This document shows positions 529 to 42,318 of a stretch of 54,844 bases of DNA, in pieces. The notes below the pieces were generated by a model. That model saw only the letters and a list, made by a program, of their open reading frames with translations, was not told the origin of the DNA and searched no databases. Position 1 is the first letter of the stretch. Every line of letters starts with the position of its first letter. A program made the translations under genes and the position numbers. Source of the stretch: an uncultured bacterium (GTDB lineage Bacteria; CSSED10-310; CAZUFC01); contig CAZUFC010000020.1 in the NCBI GenBank assembly GCA_964619725.1, positions 1 through 54,844 on the forward strand, read 5' to 3'.

Positions 529-554
529 CGGTTCCTCCGTTATAAATAGAGAGC

Positions 555-590
555 AAAAAGGACTTTCAACACAATGTCGAAAGTCCTTTC
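555..590 (-). terminator. Intrinsic terminator of the cohesin/dockerin operon
   Basis: Minus strand GAAAGGACTTTCGAC-ATTGT-GTTGAAAGTCCTTTTT, ~30 bp after the stop at 619. Confidence 0.85.
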
Positions 591-618
591 ACTCAATAAA
601 TGATCAAAGGTTTTTCGT

Positions 619-3600
619 TCAGTTTTTTTTCTTCCTAACGGTATGAAAGATCATTCCGAGAAGGAGGATCAGCAGCAGAGAGCCTTCAGTGGATAATGCC
701 GGTATGGGCGCCTGGGTGGGAATCTGTGTGGGGGTTCGTGATATTTCGGGAGTAGGGGAAAGGAAGGGGGTTTCGGTGAAGTGCACGGTGGGTATTTCTG
801 TGGGGAATTGTGAAGGGGTCATTGACGGTTCCGGGGTCGGTTCTGTGGTAGGCGTTCCGGTAGGTTGGCCGGTTGTCGTCGGTTCCCGGGTGGGTTCTGC
901 AGAAGGTGACGGTTCGATGGTCGGAGCTTCAGTGGGGACGGTGGTAGGGGGTTCGGTCGGCATTTCGGTGGGCGCATCAGTTGGAACGGGAGTCGGAGCG
1001 AGGGTCGGCCCCTGTGTGGGGGTACCGACGGGACCGCCGCATAATTCTGCGTTATCGACAATTACTGAAGCATCGCCGTCCCAGCCTTCGGAAACGTCGT
1101 ACATGCGAATCTGAAAAACGCAATAAGCGGCATCGAGAGGGGCTTCCTGCTGCAAAATATCGAAGGTTTGCCAATCGTCCATATCGATGGAGTATCCGCC
1201 GTCGACGACATCCAGGATATATCCTTCGCTGTCTTCCCATACGATCCATAACCTGATGCGTCCTGCGGGGTCGAAATCGTAACACCGGAGTTTAACATCG
1301 TATAATTCTCCGGGTATGATTTCCGTTCTCTGGTAAAGTTCTCTGGTGCTGTCGCTGGTCCATTCCAGGGCGCATGCGGCATTGCCGTCCCAGACCATAT
1401 CCGATTCCATCAATGCATGGAATCCGTTTGTATCGCTGAGGCGCCAGTCATCGGGCGGCCCACCGGAGCCGTGTTCAATCCACGACTCGAATCCTGGATT
1501 CTCTAATGCGTTATTATCGCACATAGTCGGAACAGGAGTAGCGGTCGGGGTATCGGTCGGAAGCGGTGAAGGGGTTAAGGTAGGTGATGCGGTGGGAGTC
1601 GGGGAGTCGGTGGGCGTGGGGCTGGGCGTATTGCTGGGCGAAAGAGTCGGCGTTCGAGAAGGCGTATGAGTGAAGGTGGGTGATGGAGTAGGCGTATGGG
1701 GAATATTTCCGCAGACTTCCACGTTATCGACGATAACTTGTGCATTGCCGTCCCAGAAATCGGGAACGTCGTACATCCTTATTTGAACCCGGCAGAATGC
1801 CGCAGATGCCGGGGAAGTTTCATCCGTCATCTCAAACATCTGCCACTGTTCTGAATCCCTGGAGTATCCCCCATCAACGGTATCGATCAGTCCTCCAGTT
1901 GCGTCTTCCCAGCGTATCCAGTATCTGATGCGGCCTGCGGTATCATCATCCAGATATCGCAACCTGAAGTCATACGATTCATTGGGATAGACAGCGAAAA
2001 CCTGGTAAAGTTCCTTAGTCAGCGTATTGGTCCATGCCAGCCTGCAGGAATAATTTCCATCGAACACTCTGCCGGTTTCCCTGATAGCGGAATATCCGAT
2101 GACGGCGCCGATATGCCAGTTGTCCGGCGGACCAAAAGGACCGTTTTCGTACCAGTTTTCGAAGCCCGGATTCACGGGAGCGTTATCCGGACACATTGAT
2201 GGAACCGGCGTATGCGTCGGTGAGGCGGTAGGCGTCTCAGTCGGCGTATCCGTGGGTGAAAATGTGGGTGACGGGGTGAATGTCGCGGTTGATGTGGGTG
2301 AATTTGTCGGCGGGGGCGTCGGGGTTAGGGTAACTGTGGGAGAATTCGTCGGGGACGCCGTAGGCGTCGACGTTCCGCAGTAATAGGAGAATGTTCCGGA
2401 TTCTCTGCCCCATCCTTCCAGATCATCGGTCAAGTGTGAAATGAAAAGTTCGCACTCATCGCCGTTAATGCAGTCCGGACAATTGACCTGAAAGGTAAAA
2501 ACAACCAGGCTGCCGGAACTGTCTGCCGGAATAGCGTCATCCGGATGAACGAATCCTGTCGTCCGAATCTCTCCTGCTACCGGTTCATTGCAGCCGAACA
2601 TAACCCATCCGGGGTCCAGAGTTCCCGGGCTGCATTCGACGTATTGAAGCTGATCCGTACAATAGACCAGGTGAAAACCGAACGCATCAACGGGAGTATC
2701 CGGATTGGAAATGTTCACCGGGACATTAACCGTATCGCCGTGGCATCCCGCGAAGTCACTCACAGTGATGCCATCATATGTAGCAGGCGTCGGGAACGGC
2801 GTCGGCGTGCAAAAGTATGCGAACGAACCGTTTTGGATAGTCCAACCGTCAAGATCAGCCGTCAAATTGGAAAATGCAAGTTCGCATTCGGCGCCCGGCA
2901 CGCACTCCGGGCATGTGATCTGAAATGTAAGCGTCACCAGGCTGCCTGAACTGCCGGCGGGAACAGCATCGTCGGGATGCACAAATCCTGTGGCTCGAAT
3001 TTCCCCGCTTTCCGATTCATTGCAGCCGAACATCGTCCAGCCAGGGTCCAACTCGCCTTCAGAACATCCCATATACTGCATCATATCGGTGCAATACTGA
3101 AGATAGAAACCGAACGCATCCACCGGGGTTTCCGGATTAGAAATCACGACATCGACGTCAATGGTTTCCTGCGTGCATCCAGTAAAGTTTTCCAGCATGA
3201 TGACGTCAGCAGGCGTCGGCGTAGCGGTCGGCGTCGGAGTGCAATAATAGACGAAGGTCCCGGCTTGTCCGATCCAGCCGGAAAAATCATCCGTCAGATT
3301 GAACAGAGTAACCTCAAACTCATCCCCGATACTGCATGATTCGCATTTAACGCGGAACCTCAGCGCCGCCAAGCTGCCGGAGCTTCCTGCGGGGATGCTG
3401 CCGGAATGAGAAAAGCCTGTAGCTCTTATTTGTCTCGGGACCGGTTCATTGCAGCCGAACATGGTCCAGTCAGGGTCCAGATCGCCTTCGGTGCAATTAA
3501 GAAATTCCAGGGCATCGGCATCATATCCGGCGTAAAGTCCGAAAGCATCCACAGCCGTATCTGGATTGGTCAACATAACTGTCATCATTATCGTGTCGTC

Positions 3601-4176
3601 CGAGCATCCCTGAGCGTCTTCAATCCACACGAGATCGTTGGTCGTTGGAGTGGGAGTCGGGGGGCATGAGTAAGTAAAAACTGCACCCTGTTGTTCCCAT
3701 CCATCGATATCTGCAGTCAAGTCAGACAATGATACGATGGATTGGTCATTCATGATGCAATGCCAACAAGTGACCTGAAATGTCAACGTTATGATGCTGC
3801 CGTTGCTGCCGGCGGGTATGACTCCAGGATAGGCAAAAGCCGTCGTCCTGATTTCTCCTTCCTCTGGTTCATTGCAGCCGAACAGAACCCATCCCGGATC
3901 AAGGTCGCCTTCAGCGCACTCGATGTAATCCAGCATTCCTGCATCGTAATGAATATAGCAGCCGAATGCATCCACAGGCGTATCCGCATTCGAAATCATA
4001 ACGTTTACTTCGATCATATCGCCCATGCAACCGGAAAAATCCTCAATCCAAATCATGTCTCCATTGAAGGGCGGCTCCTGGCCTCCGGAAGCTCTTGCAT
4101 CACCGTGAAAGCTCCCGAAAGCCGACGACAAAACGCAGCCGATTAAAATACCGACCCAAAAGCTATAGCGTTTCAT
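619..4176 (-). CDS. Scaffoldin-like surface protein: signal peptide, 4 cohesin-like domains, 2 CBM4/9-like domains, Pro/Thr linkers, IPTL-CTERM-like sorting tail
   Basis: Four ~130-aa repeats (approx. nt 4056-3666, 3633-3241, 3204-2809, 2772-2378) with V.V.ISNPDTPVDAFGF.L.Y..D.L.Y..C..G.LDPGW..FGCNEP..GEIR...IPAGSSGSLV.LTFQV. Two NPGFE.W...PD.W...VDNVE domains. C-terminus IPALSTEGSLLLILLLGMIFHTVRKKKN. AAGGAG RBS. Confidence 0.8.
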   Translation of the reverse strand: MKRYSFWVGILIGCVLSSAFGSFHGDARASGGQEPPFNGDMIWIEDFSGCMGDMIEVNVMISNADTPVDAFGCYIHYDAGMLDYIECAEGDLDPGWVLFGCNEPEEGEIRTTAFAYPGVIPAGSNGSIITLTFQVTCWHCIMNDQSIVSLSDLTADIDGWEQQGAVFTYSCPPTPTPTTNDLVWIEDAQGCSDDTIMMTVMLTNPDTAVDAFGLYAGYDADALEFLNCTEGDLDPDWTMFGCNEPVPRQIRATGFSHSGSIPAGSSGSLAALRFRVKCESCSIGDEFEVTLFNLTDDFSGWIGQAGTFVYYCTPTPTATPTPADVIMLENFTGCTQETIDVDVVISNPETPVDAFGFYLQYCTDMMQYMGCSEGELDPGWTMFGCNESESGEIRATGFVHPDDAVPAGSSGSLVTLTFQITCPECVPGAECELAFSNLTADLDGWTIQNGSFAYFCTPTPFPTPATYDGITVSDFAGCHGDTVNVPVNISNPDTPVDAFGFHLVYCTDQLQYVECSPGTLDPGWVMFGCNEPVAGEIRTTGFVHPDDAIPADSSGSLVVFTFQVNCPDCINGDECELFISHLTDDLEGWGRESGTFSYYCGTSTPTASPTNSPTVTLTPTPPPTNSPTSTATFTPSPTFSPTDTPTETPTASPTHTPVPSMCPDNAPVNPGFENWYENGPFGPPDNWHIGAVIGYSAIRETGRVFDGNYSCRLAWTNTLTKELYQVFAVYPNESYDFRLRYLDDDTAGRIRYWIRWEDATGGLIDTVDGGYSRDSEQWQMFEMTDETSPASAAFCRVQIRMYDVPDFWDGNAQVIVDNVEVCGNIPHTPTPSPTFTHTPSRTPTLSPSNTPSPTPTDSPTPTASPTLTPSPLPTDTPTATPVPTMCDNNALENPGFESWIEHGSGGPPDDWRLSDTNGFHALMESDMVWDGNAACALEWTSDSTRELYQRTEIIPGELYDVKLRCYDFDPAGRIRLWIVWEDSEGYILDVVDGGYSIDMDDWQTFDILQQEAPLDAAYCVFQIRMYDVSEGWDGDASVIVDNAELCGGPVGTPTQGPTLAPTPVPTDAPTEMPTEPPTTVPTEAPTIEPSPSAEPTREPTTTGQPTGTPTTEPTPEPSMTPSQFPTEIPTVHFTETPFLSPTPEISRTPTQIPTQAPIPALSTEGSLLLILLLGMIFHTVRKKKN

Positions 4177-4332
4177 ATATCATCGGTCTCCTTTCCTGAC
4201 GACTTTGCCTGTCTTTTCATCTTATTTCTCGAAAGAACGCGCATTTCCCTTCCTGTTAAAACTGATTCTTCTGTTATTTTCATGATCATGATCTCAGGCA
4301 TATCGTCACGGTCTGGAATTTTAATCCAGCTG

Positions 4333-7300
4333 TTATTGTTTCAGGGCTCTCATCGGCATCAATAAAGTCCTTCCATCCAGATATTCTTCAGTCAATTGCG
4401 AGGACGTTAATTCACAGTAGACGAATGAAGCGCCCAATCCGTTCGCTTCTGACAGATCGTCCGTCAGATAGGAAAACTGCAATTCACAGCGTTCTCCGAT
4501 ACGGCATTCTGCGCATGAAACCTTGAATTTTAGGGTCATCAATATTTCATTGCTTTCAGCGGGCAGAGCATCATCCGGGTGCAGGAAACCGGCTGAACGT
4601 ATTTCACCTGTTGCGGGTTCATTGCAGCCGATCATGATCCATTCCAGATCGGGTCTTCCCGTCTCGAAACCGACATATTCCAGCATATCCGTGCAGTAAT
4701 GCAGTGAGAATCCGAATGCATCGATCGCCTGGTCGTTTCCGCCGATTCTGATGGGAATCTCAATCAAATCGCCTTCGCAGCCTGAAATATTTTCGATCCA
4801 TACAGCGTAATCGCTTTCAATCATTTCAGCGATCTGCATAACATCTATTTCATTGAGATTCACGGACAGGTAACCGGCCGACAGGACATCGGCATTTTTC
4901 AGAGGACTCTTCGCATCACCGGATTTCTTGCCGTCGGGTATCGAATCGGCGCATTCGCAGGCCAAACCCAGGTAGAACATGTACATGCACTGGGCATCGC
5001 CTATGGTTATTTCTCCCTCACCCGTGCAATCGGCTGAACATGTTTCTTCAAAGGTGGGGGTATATTCGCCGAGCACAATCATGTAAGTGATCTGAGCATC
5101 CTCAATGGTGATGACGCCGTCGTTGTTGACGTCTCCATCGTTGATGCAGGCAGGAGTAGCGGTGAAAGTCGGAGCCCAGCTCGGCGTCGTCGTCGGTACC
5201 GGCGTCGGTATTTCGGTGAGTATGGGGGTCGGAGTGAAGTCAAAGTCTATCCATCCGCTGTAATCCACATCGTCGGAAACCCTTTCAGCTCCTGGATTCT
5301 CGTTGCCGTCATTCATGCATCCGTCTGCGACGAACCAGTTGTCTCGCGGTCCGCCGGCCATTCCCCAAAAATTGTATCTCGCATCCACGCATGTGCTCGA
5401 AGTATCATTGTAGACAGCGTAACCCACATGATTGCTGAACGAATTCCTCTGCGACGCGAAGCCGCCGATAATCGGAAGCGCCGAACCCGTAACGTAAACA
5501 CCGACTCCCAGACCTCCAGAATTGTTGTCGTGAATGTTGCAGTTTCTGATAAGCGGAGCAGCATTGCTTCCGTTGACGTAAATGCCGTATCCGCCGTGAT
5601 TGTAGCGAATTTGAGTGCCCACGACGGAACTGGAAGAGCCTGACGTCCCCGGACTGATATATACTCCGTATTGCGGATTCAACTCAATGATACCGCCGCT
5701 GATCTGGACGTTGCCGGGACTGGCGTAAACCCCGGAAGAGGTATTATCGTGGATGTGGCAGTCGATCAAAGTCGGATTCGCATCGCTGGCGCTGCAATTC
5801 ACTCCGTGGCCGCTTCCGAACCTCAGTTCGCAATTCTCCAGCACAGGCGAAGACCCGTTGCAGCAGACATTGTCGTAAGGATCACTGTTGCCGCCATATT
5901 CAACGATAACATGCTTCAGCGAAGTCACTAGATCATCGCAGTATTTCGCAAAGTATAATCCTTTCCAGCTTCCGAGACTGGGCGGAAATGATGCTGTAGT
6001 AAACACTATCGGCTCCATCGCTGACCCTTCCGCAATTAAAGCCCCTGGCTCCGAACTGTTCGAATCATGACCGATGTAGAAATAGTAGTTCCCTGAAAAC
6101 ATGACGACAGCGCCCGGTTCGATCGTCAATGCAGTAACGTTATCCCCGCCGTCCTGACCCCGAACATAGATATGACCGGTTATATAATAAGGTATGTCCT
6201 GACTCGGCCATATCGTATCCTGGCTTATGTTTTCTGCAGTCACGTAGATTATCTGGTTGCCGTTATCGATGTAAGTGCAGTCGGTTATTCCCTGTAATTT
6301 CTGCGCATGCATCCTTATGGGATAACTGTTGTTTGAGATAAATGCACAGTTAGACACAATCGCTGAATCATTGGCGCCTGTGCAGTATAACCCGTAACTG
6401 CCGTTGCGGGATATGCTTGTGTTTGAAACAGATACGTTCGACGTGCTTGTGACGTATATTCCGTGCGAAGAGTTTTCTTCAACGGAGCTGTTCGTTATTT
6501 CAGCTTCTGCATTCCCATTGCAATAAACGCCGTAACTGTTGCTTCTGCTTATCTCGCAGTTTTCTATAACGGGACTGGAGTAGTTATTCGAATAGATGTT
6601 GCTGCTGCTAGCGAATAATATCTTACAGTTGCGTATCGTCGGGGATGCATAGGTACATTGTACATTATGGCTTGCATAGGAAATCTCGCAATGGTCCAGC
6701 ATACAGATGGAGTCGTCCGCATAACGCCGGATGTGTATGCCGCTCCAATTCCCGGGTGATGGGTGACGATTGTGCGAAGTAATTATTATTGGCTCCGATG
6801 CAGTACCGACTGCGACGAGAGCTCCCGGCTGATAAAAGTTAGAATCGTCACCGACATAAAGATAGTGGCCGGAAAACCGCAATTCGCATCCTTCCTGAAG
6901 CGTCAGCGTCGTAACATTATCGGGACCGTCCGTGCCTTCGATGTAAATATGACTGCTGACATAATAGGGTAACGCATTCTGCCAGTAGCAGTCCTCATAA
7001 ATGTAACCGCCCCTGACCTCAATTTCTTCGTTTATATTCCCGCTGAACGTGCAGTTCTGTATTCCGTCTGCCTGGTCGGCATAGAGCGAAACGGGATATT
7101 CGCCGTGATTGGTGAATGCGCAACCGTTAACGATCACCTCGTCTGACGTGCTGTTGCAGTATAAACCATTCCTGCCGTTACGATCTATAGTGCAGTCAAC
7201 AAGGTTCAAGTAACTGGTTCCATTGGTGTATATCCCGTAACTTGAATTGAATCTTATCGTTGAAGATGAAATTGTCGGATTCCCGTTGCTGTAAGAGTAA

Positions 7301-10300
7301 ATTCCGTAACTGGAATTATGGTAGATGTCGCAGCCGGTTACTTGAGGAGCAGCGTTGTTGGTGCTGTAAATCCCTGACGAGGAGGCATAGGCGATCTCGC
7401 AATTTTCAATATTGGGCGCTGCATTATTGGTACAGTAGATATTGTTTCCTTCGCCGTACATAATACGACAATTCCTGATTGTCGGAGATGAATCATAGCA
7501 ATAGATATTCTCATAGGAACCGTATCCGCCGTATTCCACATCGCAGTATTCCATTATGCACAAAGCATCGTCAGCATAGCGTCCGAAATAAATGCCGTCC
7601 CATTCGCCCGGTATGGGGTAATCGCACTGGGTAGTGAAGAGAATACGATTCCCGGCCTCGCCCACGGCATGCAAGGCGCCTGTGTCCGTTGCAGAATCAT
7701 TGCTGCCGATGTACAGTTGATAATACTGACCGAATCGCAGTTCAATGCCCGGCTCCAGAGTCAGTGTAGTCACATTATCGGGTCCGTGGGTTCCGCGCAC
7801 ATTAATATCGCCTCCCACATAGTAAGGCAGCAGTGAATATTGTTCCCAAAGCGTATCCTGGGTGATTGTTCCTCCACCGATGTACAGGACCTGGTTGTCG
7901 TTTCCGGTGTAGCTGTTGCCTGCCAGAACCACAGCATGCGCCTGCGCAGCGTTGATTCTCACCGGATAAGTATTGTAAAGGAAGGAGCACCCAGTGAAGC
8001 TCGCCGTATCGGCGTAACCGTTGCAGTATAGTCCATAGTAGTTGTGAGAAAGAACAGTATCGGTCATATCCGCGTTTGAGGAATTGTTGACATGGACTCC
8101 TGAGCTTTCATTATGATGAAAGTAACAATCGGCGAGGATGACATTCGAATTTGCGTCAATGTAAAGACCGTGATTCGAATTATAAGCAAATTCGCAGTTT
8201 TCCAGCACAGGATTCGACCAGTTGTATGCGTAGAATCCTGGTCCCGTTCCGAAAAAGGACCGGCAATGTCTGAAAGTAGGCGAAGAAGCGTTGCAATGGA
8301 TATTTTCATAGCTCCGCCCTCCGTAGTAGACATCGCAGTATTCCATAAGACATATAGAATCGTCGGTATAATCGTCGAAATATATTCCCTGCCAGTAATT
8401 TTCCAGGGAATAGGCGCCGGTGAACGTAATGCGTTCGGTATCCGTACCGACGGCGATGAGAGCGCCGGGATCATCTATTGTGGTGGAGCCGATATGCAAT
8501 CTTCTATCATAATAGAACTGGAGTTCAACACCTGGTTCCAGCGTTAATGTCGTTACATTGTCCGGACCATCCTTTCCCCTTACATAAATATTGTTGGAAA
8601 TATAATAGGGCGTTCCGTGATCGCGCCAAATCGAATCGGAATTGATCGTGTCTCCGACGACATATATCCAGTCCGTCAGGGGCGATTCGATGATCACGTT
8701 TGCGGGCGGTCCCATTCTGGTGACGTTCCTGGCGTAAATATAGACCGGAGCATGATGGTGCTGGGTAAAAGTATTGCCGTTGATGTAGGGAGCGGATATC
8801 TCGTTCTGACAATAAATACCGTAATTGCTTCCATAAGCGATGAAATTACCGCTGATTTCCGGTTCGCAGGCGCCGGTTAAACGAATGCAATCATGCGACG
8901 GTCCGGGATCAGAAACCACTCCATCCAGAACGTAGCCGTCGCTTTCATTAAAATAAATGCAATGTTCGCCCGTATCGAAAATGGTGCACTGTTCGATTAT
9001 AGGCGCTCCGTGATCTATGTATATGCCCATGTGTTCTGCATGTCGTATTACGCAACCGTAAAGCACGGGACTCACGTAATTGCAATGTACCGCATAATGG
9101 TCGGAGCCTGAAAAATTTTGCCCTGCATACTCGATGGTCGCGTAATTAAGTTCACAGAGTGTGTCGTCAGCGTACCGCGCAAAATAAACGTCTCCCCACG
9201 AACCGGGACCGGGCGTATCACTGTCGGCCGTCAAAATAACCGGGTTCATTTCTGTTCCCTCAATGATTAAGCCTCCGGGCCTGCTGCCGTCGCTGTCATG
9301 CCCGATATACAGTCTCGCCTGCGAGGGAAATCGGAGGACAGCGCCTTCAAGGATCGTCAGGGTCGTAACGTTGTCCGGTCCTGATTGACCGCTGACGGTC
9401 ATGCCGGCTGACAGGATATAATCGGTATCCTGACCTTCCCAGGTCGTATCGTCAGTAATATTCTGAGCAATGACGTCAATGTCCTTGTCAAGAGTTACGC
9501 CTGTAATATTTCCGCAGTAACCGGCGTAAAGCCTTAAGGAATAATCGGCGGCGTTGTTAATTATATTGCCGCCGCTGATCTGGATTCCGCTGGTCGAATC
9601 GTTGCAGTATACCCCATGTCCTGTGTTATCGCTTATTATGCTGCTTGAGATTGAGACCAAACAGGGACCTCCCGTTACATGAATCCCATGCCCGTTCGAT
9701 TCGTTTATCTCGCAGTCGACCAGGGAGAGCGATGCGCTGTTGGATGTTATTCCGTGAGTATTGCTGTATTCGATCAGGCAATTATTCAGCATTGAATTAT
9801 CGCCGCTGTATTGAGAAAAGTATATCCCGTTCCAGGTTGTTGAAACGCCTGTTCCCGTAAAGATAATCTGATCGCCGCCTGAACCGTCCGCGGACAAAGC
9901 CCCGGTTTGCCCGGACTGGCTGTCGTGTCCCACCGTGATGCCAAAGCCCGATTCGAATTGTAGTTCAACGCCTTCCTGAAAATACATCGTCGTTACGAGA
10001 TCAGGACCGTCCTGCCCCCTGACGTATATCTCACCGCTTATACGAAACGGTAAACCCTGATCCTCCCATACGCAGTCATGAGTCGCGGTAGCCCCGATAA
10101 CTTCTATATAGTCGGCTCCGTTGGCGGAAAACGTATTGCCTGACAAAAACCCGGCCCTGTTTGCTCCAACACGCACCGGGATGGAACTGTTGCCGCTTAT
10201 TACGCAATCCGTCACCGTGATCATGGAATACGCAGCGCTGCAGTATATCCCATACCCGTTATTGTCGCTGATCTCCGTATCGCTGATCTCCGGAAAACCG

Positions 10301-10959
10301 GTCGCTGAAATGTATATACCGTCGTCCCCGTTGCTCTGACAGAAAGAATCCGATACCGCAGGAATTCCCGAACCTTCAAAAGCGAATCCATAAGAACCGT
10401 TGTCGTGCACCGTGCTGAATGAAAACGACGGATCGCTCTCCCCCATCGTTCGCACGCCTGACGTGCTGCTGTGGCCTATATGGCAATGCATGAATCCAGC
10501 ATCAGAGTCGTCAAGAAATACAAGAGCGCTGTTGGCGTTGCCTCCGTATTCTATGATCGTGTAATCCAGAACGCTGTCGTCCGAGTTCTCCCGAAAATAC
10601 AGACTACGCCAGTATCCGGGCGTATGCGTCGCCTGATTCGACGTCATCGTCACCGGTTGAGCAATTGTACCGTCGCACTGCAAGCTCCCGTATTCCCCGG
10701 ATGACCCGCCCACGTATAAATTCACGTTCTGATTGAATCGAACTTCCACTCCCGCTTCTATCGTCAATTCTGCTCCATCCGTCACCGTCACGTCGCCCGT
10801 CACTATATAAGTCCCGTCCGGCGCAGGTGAGGTCAATCCCCATGTCGCATCCGCAGAAATATCTCCTGAAACGTCCACCGAACCGTTAACTCCCGCAGCA
10901 CAGAATACGAAAAGTATTCCCGCCAAAAAAATACTTGATTTTTTCCTTAATTCCGACAA
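4333..10959 (-). CDS. Giant secreted right-handed beta-helix repeat protein with C-terminal dockerin plus cohesin
   Basis: Seven tandem modules with G.DGPDNVTTLTLEPG.EL.F...GAL.A.G...I.FT...W.GIYF plus PbH1-like G(I/V)Y...N...I..C.I..N repeats. Duplicated Ca-binding loops GDVNNDGVITIEDAQ / ADCTGEGEITIGDAQ (~5140-4960). Cohesin homologous to those of the neighbouring gene (~4803-4410). Start moved from 11004 to TTG at 10959 because AGGAGG lies 6 nt upstream. Confidence 0.8.
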   Translation of the reverse strand: MSELRKKSSIFLAGILFVFCAAGVNGSVDVSGDISADATWGLTSPAPDGTYIVTGDVTVTDGAELTIEAGVEVRFNQNVNLYVGGSSGEYGSLQCDGTIAQPVTMTSNQATHTPGYWRSLYFRENSDDSVLDYTIIEYGGNANSALVFLDDSDAGFMHCHIGHSSTSGVRTMGESDPSFSFSTVHDNGSYGFAFEGSGIPAVSDSFCQSNGDDGIYISATGFPEISDTEISDNNGYGIYCSAAYSMITVTDCVISGNSSIPVRVGANRAGFLSGNTFSANGADYIEVIGATATHDCVWEDQGLPFRISGEIYVRGQDGPDLVTTMYFQEGVELQFESGFGITVGHDSQSGQTGALSADGSGGDQIIFTGTGVSTTWNGIYFSQYSGDNSMLNNCLIEYSNTHGITSNSASLSLVDCEINESNGHGIHVTGGPCLVSISSSIISDNTGHGVYCNDSTSGIQISGGNIINNAADYSLRLYAGYCGNITGVTLDKDIDVIAQNITDDTTWEGQDTDYILSAGMTVSGQSGPDNVTTLTILEGAVLRFPSQARLYIGHDSDGSRPGGLIIEGTEMNPVILTADSDTPGPGSWGDVYFARYADDTLCELNYATIEYAGQNFSGSDHYAVHCNYVSPVLYGCVIRHAEHMGIYIDHGAPIIEQCTIFDTGEHCIYFNESDGYVLDGVVSDPGPSHDCIRLTGACEPEISGNFIAYGSNYGIYCQNEISAPYINGNTFTQHHHAPVYIYARNVTRMGPPANVIIESPLTDWIYVVGDTINSDSIWRDHGTPYYISNNIYVRGKDGPDNVTTLTLEPGVELQFYYDRRLHIGSTTIDDPGALIAVGTDTERITFTGAYSLENYWQGIYFDDYTDDSICLMEYCDVYYGGRSYENIHCNASSPTFRHCRSFFGTGPGFYAYNWSNPVLENCEFAYNSNHGLYIDANSNVILADCYFHHNESSGVHVNNSSNADMTDTVLSHNYYGLYCNGYADTASFTGCSFLYNTYPVRINAAQAHAVVLAGNSYTGNDNQVLYIGGGTITQDTLWEQYSLLPYYVGGDINVRGTHGPDNVTTLTLEPGIELRFGQYYQLYIGSNDSATDTGALHAVGEAGNRILFTTQCDYPIPGEWDGIYFGRYADDALCIMEYCDVEYGGYGSYENIYCYDSSPTIRNCRIMYGEGNNIYCTNNAAPNIENCEIAYASSSGIYSTNNAAPQVTGCDIYHNSSYGIYSYSNGNPTISSSTIRFNSSYGIYTNGTSYLNLVDCTIDRNGRNGLYCNSTSDEVIVNGCAFTNHGEYPVSLYADQADGIQNCTFSGNINEEIEVRGGYIYEDCYWQNALPYYVSSHIYIEGTDGPDNVTTLTLQEGCELRFSGHYLYVGDDSNFYQPGALVAVGTASEPIIITSHNRHPSPGNWSGIHIRRYADDSICMLDHCEISYASHNVQCTYASPTIRNCKILFASSSNIYSNNYSSPVIENCEISRSNSYGVYCNGNAEAEITNSSVEENSSHGIYVTSTSNVSVSNTSISRNGSYGLYCTGANDSAIVSNCAFISNNSYPIRMHAQKLQGITDCTYIDNGNQIIYVTAENISQDTIWPSQDIPYYITGHIYVRGQDGGDNVTALTIEPGAVVMFSGNYYFYIGHDSNSSEPGALIAEGSAMEPIVFTTASFPPSLGSWKGLYFAKYCDDLVTSLKHVIVEYGGNSDPYDNVCCNGSSPVLENCELRFGSGHGVNCSASDANPTLIDCHIHDNTSSGVYASPGNVQISGGIIELNPQYGVYISPGTSGSSSSVVGTQIRYNHGGYGIYVNGSNAAPLIRNCNIHDNNSGGLGVGVYVTGSALPIIGGFASQRNSFSNHVGYAVYNDTSSTCVDARYNFWGMAGGPRDNWFVADGCMNDGNENPGAERVSDDVDYSGWIDFDFTPTPILTEIPTPVPTTTPSWAPTFTATPACINDGDVNNDGVITIEDAQITYMIVLGEYTPTFEETCSADCTGEGEITIGDAQCMYMFYLGLACECADSIPDGKKSGDAKSPLKNADVLSAGYLSVNLNEIDVMQIAEMIESDYAVWIENISGCEGDLIEIPIRIGGNDQAIDAFGFSLHYCTDMLEYVGFETGRPDLEWIMIGCNEPATGEIRSAGFLHPDDALPAESNEILMTLKFKVSCAECRIGERCELQFSYLTDDLSEANGLGASFVYCELTSSQLTEEYLDGRTLLMPMRALKQ

Positions 10960-11264
10960 CTTACACCTCCTATTTTTCCTTCTCCTACTGGATCGCTCAT
11001 TCAAGATCGAGCGAAACCGTTATTCTGATTAGTCCTAAGTCATGCCATTAACCGCACTCGAAATCTCTCATTTACCATAGTGTGGTTATGCGGCAGTCAG
11101 TCCGAAGTTCACCTCCTTTCCTGAACTCATATCTCGATACTTCCCCTGGAAACACCATGCTTCTCAGTTCCTTTACGGAAAAGCGATTATGGAAAAGACC
11201 GGAAGGATATCTTTTACTTGCCTCACAGAAAGCGTCAGTGATGATCTTTTGTAGATATCATTTT

Positions 11265-11504: not shown

Positions 11505-12599
11505 ATGACTTACCAGGTACTGTCGATTAATCCGGGCGGGGGTTCGACGAAGGTCGGTCTTTTTCGATTCGGCGAGGTTGAGGAAGTAATTTGGAAGGAA
11601 ACGATCCGTCACACGCGAGAGGAATTATCCCGGTTTGAGAGCGTATTGGAGCAGTGGGAATGGCGTCGGGATTTAATCGGCGATATTTGCGAAGCGCGGG
11701 GAATGGACTGGGGGGCGTTATCGGCAGCGGCGGGCCGAGGGGGACCTTTTCGCCCCTTGCCGGGCGGCGTTTACGCTGTTTCCGACTACATGATCCGTGA
11801 TATGGAGAAGGGCGATTATCAGGCAGAGCATCCCAGTCTGCTGGGGGCGCCGTTGGCGAGGACTTTTGCCGACAAGGCGGGCGTACCCAGTTATATAGTA
11901 GACCCGGTATGCACAGACGAGTTCATAGCGGAATCGAGGATCAGCGGTCATCCGGAGATACAGCGCCGCAGTTTGACGCATGCATTAAATTTAAAAGCGA
12001 TGTGTCGCCGGGCGGCTGTTGAGATGAACAGGAGATATGAAGAATTGCGTATAGTAGCGGTGCATCTGGGCAGCGGAGCCTCCGTAAGCGCTCATATATC
12101 GGGCAAAATAATTGATGCCAATGATTCAAGCGGCGAAGGGCCTTTCTGCACCCAACGAAGCGGCGGCTTACCGTGCCGTGAATTGATCAAGTGGCTGTTC
12201 AGGACCGGCAACGGGCTGAGATACATGGAAAAGACTCTCTTACAGAGAAGTGGGATATTCGCGTATATAGGGACGGATTCGTTTCCAGAGCTGAAAAAAC
12301 TGATGGACAAGGGTGATGGAAAGGCGTTTATGATTTACAAAGGATTATTGCATCAATTAAAGAAGGAAATAGCTGCCTATGCAGGAGTCCTGGACGGAAA
12401 AGTCGATCTTATTGTCATAGGCGGCGGATTGTTGTTTGATGAAGATTTCGCCGAAGAATTGAAGGAAGCGATAGAGTGGATAGCGCCGGTAAAAATTTAT
12501 CCCGGTGAAGATGAATTGCTGGCGTTGGCCCAGGGAGCGTACCGGGTCCTCGCCGGATTGGAAAAACCCAGGGATTATGCTGCTGAGATTATAAAATGA
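11505..12599 (+). CDS. buk: Butyrate (branched-chain carboxylate) kinase
   Basis: INPGGGSTK, GRGG, IVDPV..DE, HALNLKA, HLGSGASVSAH, PGEDELLALA motifs of the acetate/butyrate kinase family; AAGGAG RBS. Confidence 0.92.
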   Translation: MTYQVLSINPGGGSTKVGLFRFGEVEEVIWKETIRHTREELSRFESVLEQWEWRRDLIGDICEARGMDWGALSAAAGRGGPFRPLPGGVYAVSDYMIRDMEKGDYQAEHPSLLGAPLARTFADKAGVPSYIVDPVCTDEFIAESRISGHPEIQRRSLTHALNLKAMCRRAAVEMNRRYEELRIVAVHLGSGASVSAHISGKIIDANDSSGEGPFCTQRSGGLPCRELIKWLFRTGNGLRYMEKTLLQRSGIFAYIGTDSFPELKKLMDKGDGKAFMIYKGLLHQLKKEIAAYAGVLDGKVDLIVIGGGLLFDEDFAEELKEAIEWIAPVKIYPGEDELLALAQGAYRVLAGLEKPRDYAAEIIK

Positions 12600-13498
12600 G
12601 ATATGAAGATTTAAAACAGAGGGCGCTGAAGGGGCCAAAACCCGTGGTAGCGCTGGTGGAAGCGGCTGATGAAGCTGCGCTTAAGGCATTATATAGAATG
12701 AAACGGGAAAAACTGGCCGACGCTTTGCTTATCGGCGACTCTGCGAAGATCAGCAGGAGCCTGCAAGAGCTGAATTGGGATTTCCCTAACGAAAGCATCA
12801 TTAACGTTCATAATTCTGCGGAGGCTATTGATAGGGCTTGCCGGGCCGTGAGGGAAAAAGAGGCTGATCTAATCATGAAAGGAAAAATCGGCACGGGCGA
12901 TCTGATGAAAGGGGTGCTGAAAAAGCAGAATGGATTCGTAACGGGAAGCCTGCTGACGCATGTGGCGGTATTTCAAGTTCCGGTTTACGACCGTCTTTTG
13001 TGTTTAAGCGATACGGGGCTGGTTATTCAGCCTTCATTTGAGGAAAGAGTCGCCATCGTCCGCAATGCGATTGATTTTATGAGGCGAGCCGGTATAGAAA
13101 AACCCAACGTTGGCCTGGTTTCTGCGACGGAAAAGCCCAATCCTGCGATGCCCGACAGTCTCGATGCAGCGAGAATAATGGAAATGGCAGACCGCGGCGT
13201 ATTTCACGGTGCGAACATTCAAGGCCCCATAGACGTCTCAATAGCCTTGTCGCCGGAAGCAGCGCGCATTAAAAACGTTGACGATTCTTTTTCTGGAAAA
13301 TTCGATATTTGGATCGTTCCGGACATGATAGGGGGCAACATACTGGGCAAGACCCTGATCCACCTGGCCGGAGCGGAAGCCGGTGGAGTCATCGTAGGCG
13401 GAAGGACCCCTATTGTACTTTTATCCCGGGCATCCAGCGATGCAGACAAATTTAATTCCATCCTGCTGGGGCTGATAGGCGTAAAAACGGCGGAGTAA
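12596..13498 (+). CDS. ptb: Phosphate butyryltransferase / phosphate acyltransferase
   Basis: ADLIMKG, LLTHVAVF, GNILGK, PIVLLSRA motifs; overlaps the buk stop (ATGA). Confidence 0.88.
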   Translation: MRYEDLKQRALKGPKPVVALVEAADEAALKALYRMKREKLADALLIGDSAKISRSLQELNWDFPNESIINVHNSAEAIDRACRAVREKEADLIMKGKIGTGDLMKGVLKKQNGFVTGSLLTHVAVFQVPVYDRLLCLSDTGLVIQPSFEERVAIVRNAIDFMRRAGIEKPNVGLVSATEKPNPAMPDSLDAARIMEMADRGVFHGANIQGPIDVSIALSPEAARIKNVDDSFSGKFDIWIVPDMIGGNILGKTLIHLAGAEAGGVIVGGRTPIVLLSRASSDADKFNSILLGLIGVKTAE

Positions 13499-13537
13499 AA
13501 AATCCGATAAAACATCGGGATTAAAAAGGAATGAAAC

Positions 13538-15436
13538 ATGTCTCAAGTAACTGAAAAAACGAAAATTGAAACTGAACAGGAGTTTCTTTTAGGCAACGCG
13601 GCCATGGCCTGGGGACTGATAAAACACGACTGCCGCTTCGCTGCCTCCTATCCGGGAACCCCCAGTTCGGAAATATTAAAAGCAACGGCTTATCTGGCTG
13701 ATCGTTTTAAAGCATCGATTTATACGGAATGGTCGGTGAATGAAAAAGTGGCCGTGGAAACAGCCCTGGCTTCTTCTCTCACAGGAAAACGCTCGGCAGC
13801 CATCATGAAACAGGTGGGACTAAACGTGGCGGCTGATCCTCTTTTGAGCGCGGCTTATACGGGAGTAGTCGGCGGATTTGTCGTCATATCCGCGGACGAT
13901 CCGGGGCCTCATTCTTCGCAGACGGAACAGGATACGCGCATTTTCGGGAGGTTCGCCAAGGTTCCGGTATTGGACCCGTCATCGCCTGCCGAAGCTGTCG
14001 ATATGTTGGGCGATGCCTTCCGTATTTCCGAAAAATACCGGATTCCCGTTATCCTGCGTCCTTCACTGCGCATCTGTCATGCCAAGCAAAACATCCGTTA
14101 CAGCCGTATCGAAAGGGAAGAAAAGCCGGCTCAATTCGTCAAAGACCCCAACCGTTGGGCAGCGACTCCTCCTGAACGTTTTAAGTTGCATAAAGAATTA
14201 AATGAAAAACTGTACGAACTGAAAAATTCTAAAGAAATCAACGTCAAGCTGAACTTCATCAAACAGGGTACCGGCAAAAAAGGCATTATCGCCTGCGGCG
14301 TAGCCTACGCTATGCTGACGGACAGGCTTGATGAGCTGGGTATGCTCGATGAAGTTCCCGTGATGAAAATAGGCATGCCTGTGCCGCTCAACGTGCATGA
14401 AATAGAACTTTTTGTTGATGAACTTGACCGGGTGCTAATTCTGGAAGACCCTGACGTTGCAGTTGAAGAACAGATTACGCTCAGGAATAAAATCAACGGA
14501 CGCCTGGACGGGACCGTGCCCTCCGAAGGAGAATTGACGGCCGGTTTGCTCAACAAACTTATTTCCGATTTTCTTGATGTTCCGGAATCGTCGCCTGATG
14601 ACGAGGAGCCGGCGAAGGCCCTAGCCCTCGAAGGACTAGAATTGCCGGTGCGGCATGCTGTCCTTTGCGCAGGCTGTCCGCATCGAGCCTCCTTCTGGTC
14701 GATCAAAAAATCTTTTCCTGAAGGCATTTTCGCTTCTGATATAGGCTGTTATACGCTGGGTCGAAATCAGCAGGCCGTAGATACCTGTGTGGACATGGGG
14801 GCATCGGTCAGCATGGCTTCCGGCTTCTATCATGCTTTTAAACAGGATGATGCTGCCGTACCGCCGATTATCGCGACCATCGGCGATTCCACATTTTTCC
14901 ATTCAGGCTTGACCGGCCTGGCTAACGCCGTCTATACCGATGCCAGAATCATCCTGGTCATACTCGACAATTCCATTACAGCCATGACCGGCGGTCAACC
15001 GGTCCCCACATCAGGAATGCTCGCCGACGGCTCCCAGGGAAATGAATTACTTCTGGAAAAAGCCGTCGAAGGATTAAACGTAAAGTTCATACGCACTGTC
15101 GATCCTTATCGGACAAAAAAATTCCAGAATGTCCTGAAGGAAGCTCATGAATACGTCAATTCAGAAGAAGGCGGACCGGCAGTCATTATCTCCCGGCGTC
15201 CCTGCGTGCTCCACGACCCCGGATCGCTGGGCGATAAAACCGGTATGAAACTCGTCGTTACCGAAGAATGCGACGGCTGCGGCTGCTGCATTTCCGCCTT
15301 TGAATGCCCCGCTCTTAAATTCAACGCAGATGAGTCCAGGGTCGAAATCGACCATCCGCTGTGCGTTAAATGCGGGGTTTGCATCCAGGTCTGCCCTAAC
15401 CATGCTCTGCGATTCGTAAAGGAGAAATTATCGTGA
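13538..15436 (+). CDS. iorA: Indolepyruvate:ferredoxin oxidoreductase alpha subunit
   Basis: YPGTPSSEI, NEKVA, MKQVGLNVAADP, LCAGCPHR, DIGCY, IGDSTFFHSG (TPP) and C-terminal 2x[4Fe-4S] motifs. Confidence 0.93.
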   Translation: MSQVTEKTKIETEQEFLLGNAAMAWGLIKHDCRFAASYPGTPSSEILKATAYLADRFKASIYTEWSVNEKVAVETALASSLTGKRSAAIMKQVGLNVAADPLLSAAYTGVVGGFVVISADDPGPHSSQTEQDTRIFGRFAKVPVLDPSSPAEAVDMLGDAFRISEKYRIPVILRPSLRICHAKQNIRYSRIEREEKPAQFVKDPNRWAATPPERFKLHKELNEKLYELKNSKEINVKLNFIKQGTGKKGIIACGVAYAMLTDRLDELGMLDEVPVMKIGMPVPLNVHEIELFVDELDRVLILEDPDVAVEEQITLRNKINGRLDGTVPSEGELTAGLLNKLISDFLDVPESSPDDEEPAKALALEGLELPVRHAVLCAGCPHRASFWSIKKSFPEGIFASDIGCYTLGRNQQAVDTCVDMGASVSMASGFYHAFKQDDAAVPPIIATIGDSTFFHSGLTGLANAVYTDARIILVILDNSITAMTGGQPVPTSGMLADGSQGNELLLEKAVEGLNVKFIRTVDPYRTKKFQNVLKEAHEYVNSEEGGPAVIISRRPCVLHDPGSLGDKTGMKLVVTEECDGCGCCISAFECPALKFNADESRVEIDHPLCVKCGVCIQVCPNHALRFVKEKLS

Positions 15437-15999
15437 ATTGCCGTATCGTTCTTGTAGGAATCGGCGGCCAGGGAATACTCTTCGCCGGACGCACCATCGG
15501 AGAAACTGCCATGAGCCTGGGTCATGGAGTCATTGGTTCAGAAACCCACGGAATGAGCCAGAGAGGCGGCTTCGTTATCTCTCATCTTAAAATTGGCCGC
15601 TTTAACGGTCCCCTCATCGCTGAAGGTTCCGCTGATATCATGTTCGGGTTCTCCTTTGAAGAAACTCTTAAAAACCTTAGCTTCCTCAAACCGGGCGGCG
15701 CATGCATCTTTAATAAATCTGCTGACGCGGAAATGCCTTACTCCATCTCTGAGTATATTGAAAAAAAATCCATTAAAGCCGACGGGTTCGACGCTTTCAA
15801 GATTGCTTTTGAACTGGGAGGGCCTAAATCTGCCAACCTGGTTCTTCTCGGAGCTGCAACCATTTTACGCGACTTTCCGTTGACGATAGATCAGTTGAAA
15901 GAAACCGTCCGTAAAATATCGCCGCCGAAATTCCTGGAAAGCAACCTGAATGCACTCGATGCCGGCGCCAGAGAAATGTCTCTCATGATAACCGCTTGA
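15433..15999 (+). CDS. iorB: Indolepyruvate:ferredoxin oxidoreductase beta subunit
   Basis: GIGGQGI, SETHGMSQRGG motifs; GTG start overlapping the iorA stop. Confidence 0.92.
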   Translation: MNCRIVLVGIGGQGILFAGRTIGETAMSLGHGVIGSETHGMSQRGGFVISHLKIGRFNGPLIAEGSADIMFGFSFEETLKNLSFLKPGGACIFNKSADAEMPYSISEYIEKKSIKADGFDAFKIAFELGGPKSANLVLLGAATILRDFPLTIDQLKETVRKISPPKFLESNLNALDAGAREMSLMITA

Positions 16000-35314: not shown

Positions 35315-36661
35315 ATGCCGGAATATCGATATACGGGAATCAGTCCGAGCCGGCAATCGATACAGGGAGTAATCAAGGCGAAGAATCGGCGGGAAGCGGA
35401 CGAGCGGATAAAGGAAGCGGCTTGGAAGAGGAGAATCCAGGTAACGAAGGTACAGCCGAAGAGGACTTATGTATATCGGGTGCGCAAATCTGGTGAGGCT
35501 GTAATCAAGGGGGAAATGGAGGCTTTTTCTTCGGATGAGATTGCATCTGCCTTTTCCCGAATGGGATACAAGATACTGGGGATAAGGAAGAGGTTATTCA
35601 ATTACCGTGTTCCCCCGCCAGTGAAGGACGTAGTGCTGTTTATCCGTTTGAGCGCTGATTTAATCCGTGAAAAGTATCCCTATGACGAGGCGCTTCAGCT
35701 ATTAGCGAATGACGTGTCTCACAAGAATTTACAGAAGGCGATCCGTGAAATCTGCAAGGATTTGAAGGACGGCAAGGAGGGCAAGGAAGTTTTCGCCAGG
35801 CAGGAGAAGATGCTGGGACATTTTCCTGCCTATATGTTGGGAGTGGCGTCTCAAAGCGGCAACATGGCTGAGATATATGAATCGACGGCGAAATTTATGG
35901 AGAGGATACAGGATTTCAAGAAGTCGTTACGGAGTGCGCTGATAATGCCGAGCGTGACGCTTTTTTTTCTTTTTTTAACGGTGCTGTTTTACATCGGATA
36001 TATATTTCCGAAGACCGCAGAGATGTTCGTGAGGTATAATATTCCTTTACCTCCGATGACGTCCGCGGCGCTGGATTTAAGTCGCTTTTTAAAAGAGTAT
36101 GCACTGATTCTCGTCGGGACGGTTTTGATTCTGGGGATTGCAGCGTGGAGATTTTTCTCTTCGGAAAAAGGCAAGCTCTGGCTTGATTCGAAGCTGATAA
36201 GGTTGCCTGTTTTGGGCGATCTGTTTCACAAGACGAGCATAGAGATATTCTGCAGGGTTTTTTATTCTCTGTACAGCGGTTCTGCAGACAACATAGAAGT
36301 TATTCAGGTTGCGGCTGAAGCCTGCCGCAACAAGCATATCATGAAAAGGATCAAGGACGTCAGCATACCGTTGATGCTGAAAGAGGGAAAGGGGTTGATA
36401 GAATCGCTCAAAGCGTCCGGCGTGTTCACGGAGAATGCCTTGACGAGGCTGAAGTCGGGAGCGGAAACCGGGACGTTGAAAACGGCAGCTCTTCAGGTTG
36501 CGAATTTTTACGAGAAGGAGACGAAGTACAAGTTAAAAGCAGCGGTAGATTGGATACAGGTGCTTGTGGCAGTGGTTATAGCTTTAGTTCTGATCATAAT
36601 AACCGTCGTATCATCTGAAACGGCCATTGTGAGACCCAAAATACCCGGAATGACGATGTGA
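35315..36661 (+). CDS. pilC: Type IV pilus platform protein (PilC/GspF family)
   Basis: MPEYRY.G N-terminus, two GspF repeats (SGNMAEIY, GAETGTLK), LPPMT, RLPVLG; 3 TM helices. Confidence 0.88.
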   Translation: MPEYRYTGISPSRQSIQGVIKAKNRREADERIKEAAWKRRIQVTKVQPKRTYVYRVRKSGEAVIKGEMEAFSSDEIASAFSRMGYKILGIRKRLFNYRVPPPVKDVVLFIRLSADLIREKYPYDEALQLLANDVSHKNLQKAIREICKDLKDGKEGKEVFARQEKMLGHFPAYMLGVASQSGNMAEIYESTAKFMERIQDFKKSLRSALIMPSVTLFFLFLTVLFYIGYIFPKTAEMFVRYNIPLPPMTSAALDLSRFLKEYALILVGTVLILGIAAWRFFSSEKGKLWLDSKLIRLPVLGDLFHKTSIEIFCRVFYSLYSGSADNIEVIQVAAEACRNKHIMKRIKDVSIPLMLKEGKGLIESLKASGVFTENALTRLKSGAETGTLKTAALQVANFYEKETKYKLKAAVDWIQVLVAVVIALVLIIITVVSSETAIVRPKIPGMTM

Positions 36662-36674
36662 TTTCGACGAACCG

Positions 36675-38441: not shown

Positions 38442-38467
38442 CCTCCCCAGACCAAAGGAGCATTCTT

Positions 38468-41385: not shown

Positions 41386-41397
41386 GGAGGAAAACAC

Positions 41398-42276: not shown

Positions 42277-42318
42277 TCAAACGATTTAAATAGTCAGCTC
42301 GACATTGGGAGGGGGCTC

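Follow-up and report, generated by a model that had tools for sequence, protein, structure and literature searches.

The clostridial cellulosome, for instance that of Acetivibrio thermocellus, is assembled from CipA, which has a carbohydrate-binding module (CBM), and from anchoring scaffoldins. The subject here is a pair of adjacent minus-strand genes from an uncultured bacterium of the CSSED10-310 lineage, located at 619-10959 of the window, that is, the whole stretch of 54,844 nucleotides (nt) analysed, the first 54.8 kb of contig C20. One gene encodes a scaffoldin with four cohesins and the other a giant beta-helix protein with a dockerin. The pair resembles the clostridial cellulosome in its multi-cohesin scaffoldin with a CBM-type module, in a partner with a duplicated-loop, type-I-like dockerin and in a cohesin whose best structural matches are type I cohesins. 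It differs in its diderm host, in having no cellulase cargo found, in an exosortase-type tail instead of SLH or sortase anchoring, in its cysteine-rich modules, in a cargo protein with its own cohesin and in CBM4/22-like putative glycan modules. As a candidate cellulosome, the locus has the multi-cohesin, CBM-like scaffoldin, whereas neither glycoside hydrolases (GHs) as main cargo nor SLH or sortase anchoring was found.

The reading preferred here, which is given about an even chance, is that the locus encodes a surface docking set in which giant beta-helix proteins are hung on an exosortase-sorted, lectin-bearing scaffoldin. The scaffoldin would be exported via its signal peptide, and its C-terminal tail would be handled by a single XrtH/ArtB-like exosortase, keeping the protein at the envelope, where four cohesins would be available as sockets, together with two CBM4/22-like modules of lectin type. 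The giant protein, presumably a secreted chain of seven beta-helix units, would plug its calcium-loop dockerin into one of the scaffoldin cohesins, and its terminal cohesin, of a separate and faster-diverging class, might hold a further dockerin protein or cap its own dockerin. Such an assembly would yield a large surface layer for adhesion or glycan binding rather than a cellulase complex. An earlier sequence-only reading of this DNA had proposed a cellulosome-like docking platform that is no cellulosome, and this holds by the domain calls and by the cargo families of 21 dockerin proteins of the genome.

Adaptor scaffoldins, such as ScaB of A. cellulolyticus and ScaA/ScaC of R. flavefaciens, combine cohesin and dockerin in one protein, a feature shared with the giant protein, as their hierarchical assembly may be; the PDB entries 4uyp and 5nrm, which are modules of adaptor scaffoldins, were found among the structure matches. 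The scaffoldin orthologue of a relative, with three cohesins and a C-terminal dockerin, is exactly such a protein. In the present locus, by contrast, the dockerin-cohesin (Doc-Coh) tandem closes a giant cargo protein, in the order dockerin to cohesin and at the extreme C-terminus.

Non-cellulosomal sets are described in the main texts on anaerobic methanotrophic (ANME)-1 and ANME-2 archaea, where a dockerin with up to five cohesins and scaffoldin-like proteins occur and the function is stated to be unknown (PMC5244752; PMC9012536). By main-text description, the archaeal sets (ANME; 2xdh of A. fulgidus) are similar to the present one in their large expansions in non-cellulolytic anaerobes, their scaffoldin-like proteins and their cargo without a link to cellulose, whereas the present set is bacterial and diderm, with another type of anchoring, cysteine-rich modules and operon pairs with beta-helix giants. 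In the epibiont of Chlorochromatium (Chlorobiota), the adjacent giant surface-protein genes Cag_2037 and Cag_2038 encode one cohesin and one dockerin, the interaction of which was inferred from modelling (10.64898/2026.03.19.712371). As described in the available part of that report, they too are adjacent giant surface-protein genes of a diderm with cohesin and dockerin, but comprise a single cohesin and a single dockerin exported by a type I secretion system (T1SS/RTX), with neither a multi-cohesin scaffoldin nor a genome-wide family. The 'Dockerin-type' giant proteins of Omnitrophota are a different thing by the available text of a preprint, and the CSSED10-310 genome announcement mentions neither cohesin nor dockerin (PMC8248873).

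In the main texts of the literature, no description was found of an exosortase-linked or cysteine-rich cohesin-dockerin system, nor of any such system for the CSSED10-310 lineage. The suggestion that the system is undescribed thus stands for the lineage and the architecture, but not for non-cellulosomal cohesin-dockerin sets as such, which are in print for ANME archaea and the Chlorobiota epibiont. New here are the diderm candidate-phylum setting, the cysteine-rich module subfamily, the C-terminal Doc-Coh tandem on giant proteins and the operon pairing with tailed scaffoldins. If the preferred reading is true, cohesin-dockerin assembly would be extended from Gram-positive cellulose degraders and archaeal genomic hints to a whole diderm candidate phylum. 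The cysteine-rich modules, with several apparently separate specificity groups, could provide useful orthogonal connectors for protein engineering, and questions are raised about the route of exosortase-sorted proteins to the surface and about the role of cohesin-dockerin pairs outside cellulosomes.

The scaffoldin and its giant partner

The two genes are co-oriented open reading frames (ORFs) of the minus strand, one at 619-4176 for the scaffoldin (1185 amino acids (aa), P0001) and one at 4333-11004 for the giant protein (2223 aa, P0002). The second frame is open to 11004, but a GGAGG box was read in the sequence 6 nt ahead of a TTG at 10959-10957; this TTG is therefore the likely start of the giant gene (4333-10959), and the end coordinate of the sequence-only reading, 10959, likely marks that start. 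The genes are separated by a spacer of 156 nt (4177-4332), which has a GGAG box ahead of the scaffoldin ATG and in which no minus-strand terminator-like site was called. An intrinsic terminator, composed of a hairpin and a U-run, lies downstream of the scaffoldin stop (551-594, minus strand); the hairpin has a folding energy of -24.6 kcal/mol (z -5.89, with 0 of 200 shuffles as stable) and is followed by UUUUUGCUCU. The layout is operon-like, and the arrangement that had been proposed earlier, of two co-oriented adjacent genes ending at one strong terminator, is confirmed by the frames, the 156-nt gap and the hairpin.

The scaffoldin has a predicted signal peptide (4090-4176, minus strand; MKRYSFWVGILIGCVLSSAFGSFHGDARA), which was read from the sequence, not computed, followed by four cohesins, two CBM-like domains, PT linkers and a C-terminal sorting tail. 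The Pfam Cohesin profile (PF00963) matches it at 86.2 bits against a cut-off of 24.1, and the four tandem cohesin-like domains of the earlier description correspond to the four stretches of this match. These are, on the minus strand, cohesin 1 at 3649-4065, which was the module used in the complex model, cohesin 2 at 3226-3645, cohesin 3 at 2797-3213 and cohesin 4 at 2359-2781, each found by both Pfam and the module hidden Markov model (HMM). They are 50-63% identical to one another and, by homology to a modelled fifth cohesin of the giant protein, would share the flattened beta-sandwich fold of cohesins.

The cohesins are followed by two CBM-like domains of approximately 175 aa each, domain A at 1672-2211 and domain B at 1003-1542 (minus strand), of which B is 53% identical to A. 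Pfam gave no family for either of them at E<=10, and NTTRR-F1 was matched only weakly (23.1 bits against a cut-off of 70). An AlphaFold2 (AF2) model of domain A was built on 10 paralogues, with a mean predicted local distance difference test (pLDDT) score of 89 and a predicted template modelling (pTM) score of 0.85. Its best PDB matches in Foldseek were CBM4-2, CBM61, CBM16 and CBM22, with a probability of 1.00 and a template modelling (TM) score of approximately 0.6; 2y64_A was matched at E 9e-8, and the top three matches had TM scores of 0.57-0.67 by query length. Beside CBM modules, the list contained lectin-like domains of phage tailspikes. Domain A is accordingly modelled as a CBM4/22-like beta-jelly-roll, the fold that domain B would share by its identity to A, and the two CBM-like domains noted before are recovered by fold and PDB matches, without a Pfam profile match.

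The giant protein contains seven tandem right-handed beta-helix units of Beta_helix/NosD-like type (5305-10872, minus strand; Pfam), with Beta_helix scoring 330.9 bits in seven stretches and NosD 163.2 bits. A PT linker follows the beta-helix region, after which comes a cysteine-rich dockerin (4957-5154, minus strand; Pfam and paralogue profile) with the two calcium-loop repeats DVNNDGVITIEDA and DCTGEGEITIGDA. Dockerin_1 (PF00404) scored 24.2 bits on the 289-aa C-terminal piece of the protein and 26.2 bits in the genome scan (4987-5136). A profile of 16 dockerin paralogues aligned with solved type I dockerins over both calcium loops at E 0.002, by which the claim of a duplicated calcium-loop dockerin is upheld. 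Residues D9, G10, D11, D22 and D56 are invariant across the 16 paralogues, and both loops are kept.

The giant protein is more than a cargo with a dockerin, as it ends in its own Doc-Coh tandem. The cohesin of this tandem, the fifth of the locus (4405-4806, minus strand), was overlooked in the sequence-only reading. It scores 223 bits to the HMM of five modules, is 41-47% identical to the four cohesins of the scaffoldin and has no Pfam match when searched alone. In the AF2 model of the Doc-Coh cassette (pLDDT 84.8), the dockerin helices are placed at cassette residues 20-30 and 54-64, and only the linker residues 79-103 are disordered. The modelled cohesin matches type I cohesins, with 5nrm_A at E 5.4e-12 and a TM score of 0.77 by target length, and also the non-cellulosomal cohesin 2xdh of A. 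fulgidus (Archaeoglobus).

Sorting tail and cell envelope

In exosortase-type sorting, the signals that belong to XrtH are of IPTL type, and those that belong to ArtB are VPXXXP-CTERM. The scaffoldin ends in a C-terminal sorting signal of this general kind (622-741, minus strand; found by sequence and pattern), with an IPALSTEG motif within ...APIPALSTEG, a hydrophobic helix and RKKKN in this order; its C-terminus reads ...APIPALSTEGSLLLILLLGMIFHTVRKKKN. The membrane-spanning and basic IPxL tail that had been described is present as [IV]PxL, a transmembrane segment and basic residues, and by this tail the scaffoldin would be tethered to a membrane. Pfam gave no SLH family in the scaffoldin, and the tail has no LPXTG.

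With a permissive pattern, such a tail was found at the true C-terminus of 313 ORFs of the genome, compared with 12 in a control at an internal position. Its consensus reads TPPP[IV]PA[LFV][SG]xxG, the G being present in 183 of the 313. Another control, on reversed N-termini, gave 152 matches and was rejected, as reversed signal peptides mimic the pattern. The scaffoldin tail weakly matches midcut-by-XrtH (E 0.041). The genome has a single gene of the exosortase/archaeosortase family, encoding 190 aa (G000:C134:13003-13455 = L044:1453-2025, minus strand), which passes the exo_archaeo family signature (65.7 bits; cut-off 23). The closest subtypes are ArtB (78.2 bits, cut-off 150) and XrtH (76.6 bits, cut-off 86), and the enzyme lies under the cut-off of every subtype. 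Its gene has as neighbours a same-strand ORF for a 214-aa membrane protein of no family, with which it overlaps, and, on the opposite strand, a gene for a secreted PT-rich protein.

The system resembles exosortase/archaeosortase (PEP-CTERM) sorting in its tripartite C-terminal signal on hundreds of secreted proteins and its one exosortase-family gene, whereas the motif, [IV]PA[LFV][SG]xxG, mostly fails IPTL_CTERM and the enzyme is below all subtype cut-offs. The exosortase-type look of the anchor, proposed from the sequence at first, is supported by the single gene and by the approximately 300 ORFs with the tail under the permissive pattern. The same tail type (...PPIPAVNSFG, helix and RKKEKY) ends a 1540-aa FG-GAP-repeat protein in the window (48471-53093, plus strand; FG-GAP_3, 215 bits, nine stretches), and the sorting signal is therefore used well beyond cohesin proteins. 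In addition, a protein of collagen-triple-helix repeats with a weak YadA-head match runs off the end of the window (53379-54839, minus strand) and is likely another surface adhesin.

The proposed diderm host is consistent with the gene content, which includes seven secretin matches genome-wide, one of them in the window (42319-43641), and six Omp85 matches. The window secretin belongs to a block resembling type II secretion or type IV pili (35315-43641, plus strand), with T2SSF, two T2SSE ATPases and two family-less ORFs. Another secretin, of 845 aa (G000:C12:72043-74580, plus strand = L103:4044-6581; TPR, Secretin_N and Secretin at 121 bits), ends in a cohesin-like domain (aa 728-809), which scored 21.8 bits to Pfam Cohesin and 25.6 bits in the genome scan and was not matched by the cysteine-rich cohesin HMM. 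Its gene is preceded by those for an extracytoplasmic function (ECF) sigma factor, an anti-sigma factor and a TPR protein and followed by two PmbA/TldD genes. This secretin could be an outer-membrane docking point.

Paired loci and the proposed docking of dockerins on cohesins

The bin from which the window comes has 9.17 Mb in 344 contigs and is 90.9% complete and 6.5% contaminated. A Pfam scan of this genome gave 34 Cohesin and 13 Dockerin_1 matches, while HMMs built from the window's own modules detected 55 cohesin modules, spread over 33 ORFs, and dockerins on 30 ORFs. The Doc-Coh tandem is found on 19 ORFs of 274 to 12092 aa, typically at the C-terminus; the longest is an open frame of 12092 aa at G000:C34:1691-37966 (plus strand), with the tandem and a sorting tail at its end. 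At 11 loci, a dockerin-bearing giant, either Doc-Coh or dockerin-only, lies directly upstream of a protein with one to five cohesins, and the tail pattern flagged the cohesin protein at 10 of these 11. A paralogue of the complete pair, with its CBM-like domains, lies at G000:C97:1196-11440.

The possibility that the cohesin-like and dockerin-like domains no longer interact and are merely spacers or stalk elements of secreted proteins is considered very unlikely. It may be entertained, as non-cellulosomal modules have no known function according to the main text of an archaeal study (PMC5244752). It fits poorly with the conservation of both calcium loops and five residues across 16 paralogues, with the strict adjacency of cohesin and dockerin genes at 11 loci, with their co-variation and with a complex model that scored above all controls. 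In that model, cohesin 1 (alignment of 28 modules) and the dockerin (alignment of 16) were combined with two calcium ions in one run set, giving a score of 0.48 against 0.00 for the best control and a verdict of weak support. Of 80 solved complexes, 58 reach this mark, as do two of 110 mismatched pairs; only seven of the 80 solved complexes reached it with scores at 0.60 or under, as did both passing mismatches. The runs had 100% contact agreement and a partner pLDDT of 90. As for the co-variation, the more alike the dockerins of two loci are, the more alike are the cohesins of the scaffoldins next to them, across the 11 loci (Mantel r 0.72, reached by 0 of 2000 permutations). This fits co-diversifying partners, although duplication of whole loci would give the same result. 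Three sequence groups, C20/C97/C64, C2/C8/C15/C154 and C86/C122, are distinguished among the loci.

A self-clasped cassette, in which the dockerin and the C-terminal cohesin of the same giant protein bind each other for folding, stabilising or masking and the scaffoldin cohesins serve dockerin-only proteins, is judged unlikely. Such proteins do exist in the genome (C131, 1848 aa; C116, 821 aa), and the tandem, present on 19 ORFs, is conserved with a linker of 41-68 aa in each of the 10 cargo proteins that were compared. A pTM of 0.80 for the model of both domains, with its disordered linker, points the same way. The terminal cohesin is only 21-47% identical to scaffoldin cohesins, which are 40-63% identical among themselves; this was found in all 10 cargo proteins, and the terminal cohesin is therefore a separate class, as a self-partner might be. 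This class, however, is nearly cysteine-free (0-1) in the C8, C15 and C154 loci and scores only 22-31 bits there, a poor fit to a conserved self-partner. The constant position of the giant gene directly upstream of the scaffoldin gene at the 11 loci also speaks against the self-clasp, as does the tracking of the neighbouring scaffoldin's cohesins by the dockerin.

Docking of the giant protein on the scaffoldin is the preferred reading, and several observations weigh against it. The binding is a modelled one with weak support, and the pass of the model may be memory, as cohesin-dockerin complexes have already been solved. The giant protein has its own cohesin 50 aa past the dockerin, and the cassette pTM of 0.80 despite the disordered linker suggests that the modules may be packed together and that the dockerin may be occupied intramolecularly. 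On the full-length giant protein, Dockerin_1 scored 20.2 bits, below the cut-off of 22.9, and the second calcium loop is D-C-T-G-E-G against D-C-N-G-D-G in paralogues, with T and E replacing N and D. The scaffoldin tail has no match to the curated IPTL_CTERM (TIGR04174), the cut-off of which is passed by only two ORFs genome-wide, and the filing of the tail under that family was rejected for the latter reason. The exosortase is below the XrtH cut-off, at 76.6 against 86 bits, and the helix of the tail would sit in the inner membrane, the crossing of the outer membrane by exosortase substrates not being established. The bin contamination of 6.5% likewise counts here, together with the possible strain duplicates C86/C122, with dockerins 94% identical, and C276/C277, with the same 578-aa architecture and equal scores; the locus counts are therefore upper bounds.

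A last point of this kind concerns the cysteines. Their conservation, noticed early, is borne out by alignments, in which six cysteines are kept in all 16 dockerins, while among 28 scaffoldin cohesins six positions are cysteine in 23-28 modules and two more in 14-17. The disulfides that had been suggested from them are doubtful, since the 91%-complete genome yielded neither DsbB nor VKOR, although absence is not provable in such a bin. Disulfides are therefore not the sole reading of these clusters in dockerins and cohesins, and metal sites are an alternative. In a more speculative scheme, thought quite improbable, the Doc-Coh tandem would be a self-extending connector, by which each giant protein docks on a cohesin of the scaffoldin and in turn presents a new socket to the next giant, so that a branched, multi-megadalton beta-helix coat could grow from a few exosortase-sorted scaffoldins; the cysteine clusters would then be metal sites or unusual cross-links that stabilise the joints in an anoxic, sulfidic setting without DsbB or VKOR.

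Cargo families and distribution

The cargo census covered 21 dockerin proteins of the genome, the 12092-aa protein being left out. Beta_helix was found in 13, NosD in nine, Big_7 in five and Alpha-amylase in one, and CBM_4_9 or 3keto-disac_hyd occurs on others. The 25 families listed for the 21 proteins include neither a cellulase family nor a classical GH or polysaccharide lyase (PL) family, and no glycoside hydrolase was found among the 29 large ORFs of the window that were scanned. The dockerin proteins are thus not mostly ordinary cellulases, and the lack of a glycoside hydrolase in the window, stated in the sequence-only reading, is confirmed for the scanned ORFs. Its description of the cargo as non-glycolytic goes further than these results, as beta-helix/NosD-like and CBM-like modules also fit glycan binding or cleavage.

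From the same modules, the complex could be a true polysaccharide-degrading '-some' and a cellulosome analogue, in which the beta-helix units would act as lyases or hydrolases on a glycan other than cellulose, e.g., mat exopolymers, and the CBM-like modules would aim the complex at that substrate. This reading, like the self-clasp a live rival of the preferred one, is regarded as rather unlikely. The Beta_helix and NosD-like matches of the units would suit it, and the two CBM4/16/22/61-like domains of the scaffoldin recall the CBM of CipA; dockerin proteins with alpha-amylase (one), CBM_4_9 or 3keto-disac_hyd are of the kind it predicts, and peptidases of the families C25, S8 and M14, attached to the same modules in relatives, indicate that enzymes are docked in this family. 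Seven near-identical tandem units, on the other hand, would appear structural rather than catalytic, and the absence of classical GH or PL families from the 21 listed proteins is not what a degrading complex would lead one to expect. One beta-helix unit compared with solved structures gave only chance-level matches (E 0.11 and 0.28) and no sequence relative, so that no catalytic residues can be checked.

Enzymes do occur as cargo in relatives. In the metagenome-assembled genome (MAG) of one relative, the same Doc-Coh cassette ends a C25 peptidase and an S8 peptidase, and an M14 carboxypeptidase of a CSSED10-310 MAG carries a dockerin of the same type. The C25 gingipain-like and S8 subtilase genes are adjacent (L061:4062-14136), with Doc-Coh at both C-termini, which hints at docked protease sets in that relative. 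The orthologous pair of one relative consists of a beta-helix protein of 1996 aa with Doc-Coh and, after it, a protein with three cohesins, a PT linker and a C-terminal dockerin, the latter protein being an adaptor scaffoldin and not a tailed one.

The cassette profile has matches in 10 of 14 genomes of the phylum, that of the window among them, and no match was found in the other four (86-96% complete). The phylum genomes of 2.6-4.6 Mb have 31-90 matches each, and cohesin-dockerin assembly appears to be a main organiser of the surface proteome of the phylum. The closest public loci are in MAGs named 'candidate division CSSED10-310 bacterium' and 'uncultured bacterium', in one KSB1 MAG and in one 'Cytophagia' MAG. 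Matches among 1.84 billion representative proteins numbered 3989 at E<=1e-3, of which 1662 reached E<=1e-10 and 273 reached E<=1e-30. From the best 150 of these, the 15 sharing most 12-mers with the genome of the window were dropped, and the commonest architectures of cohesin (C) and dockerin (D) among the remaining 135 were C-D-C (37), D-C (20) and C-C-D (18). Forty of the 135, chosen for a long region ahead of the modules, showed a type IX secretion system (T9SS) sorting domain at the end in 11, Beta_helix in four, Calx-beta in four and Peptidase_C25 in two. Other diderm lineages thus have the module subfamily too, with an anchoring device that differs from one lineage to another.

Divergent from the giant gene, the window contains a fermentation block (11505-15999, plus strand) with acetate/butyrate-kinase-like, phosphate acyltransferase and 2-oxoacid:ferredoxin oxidoreductase genes.

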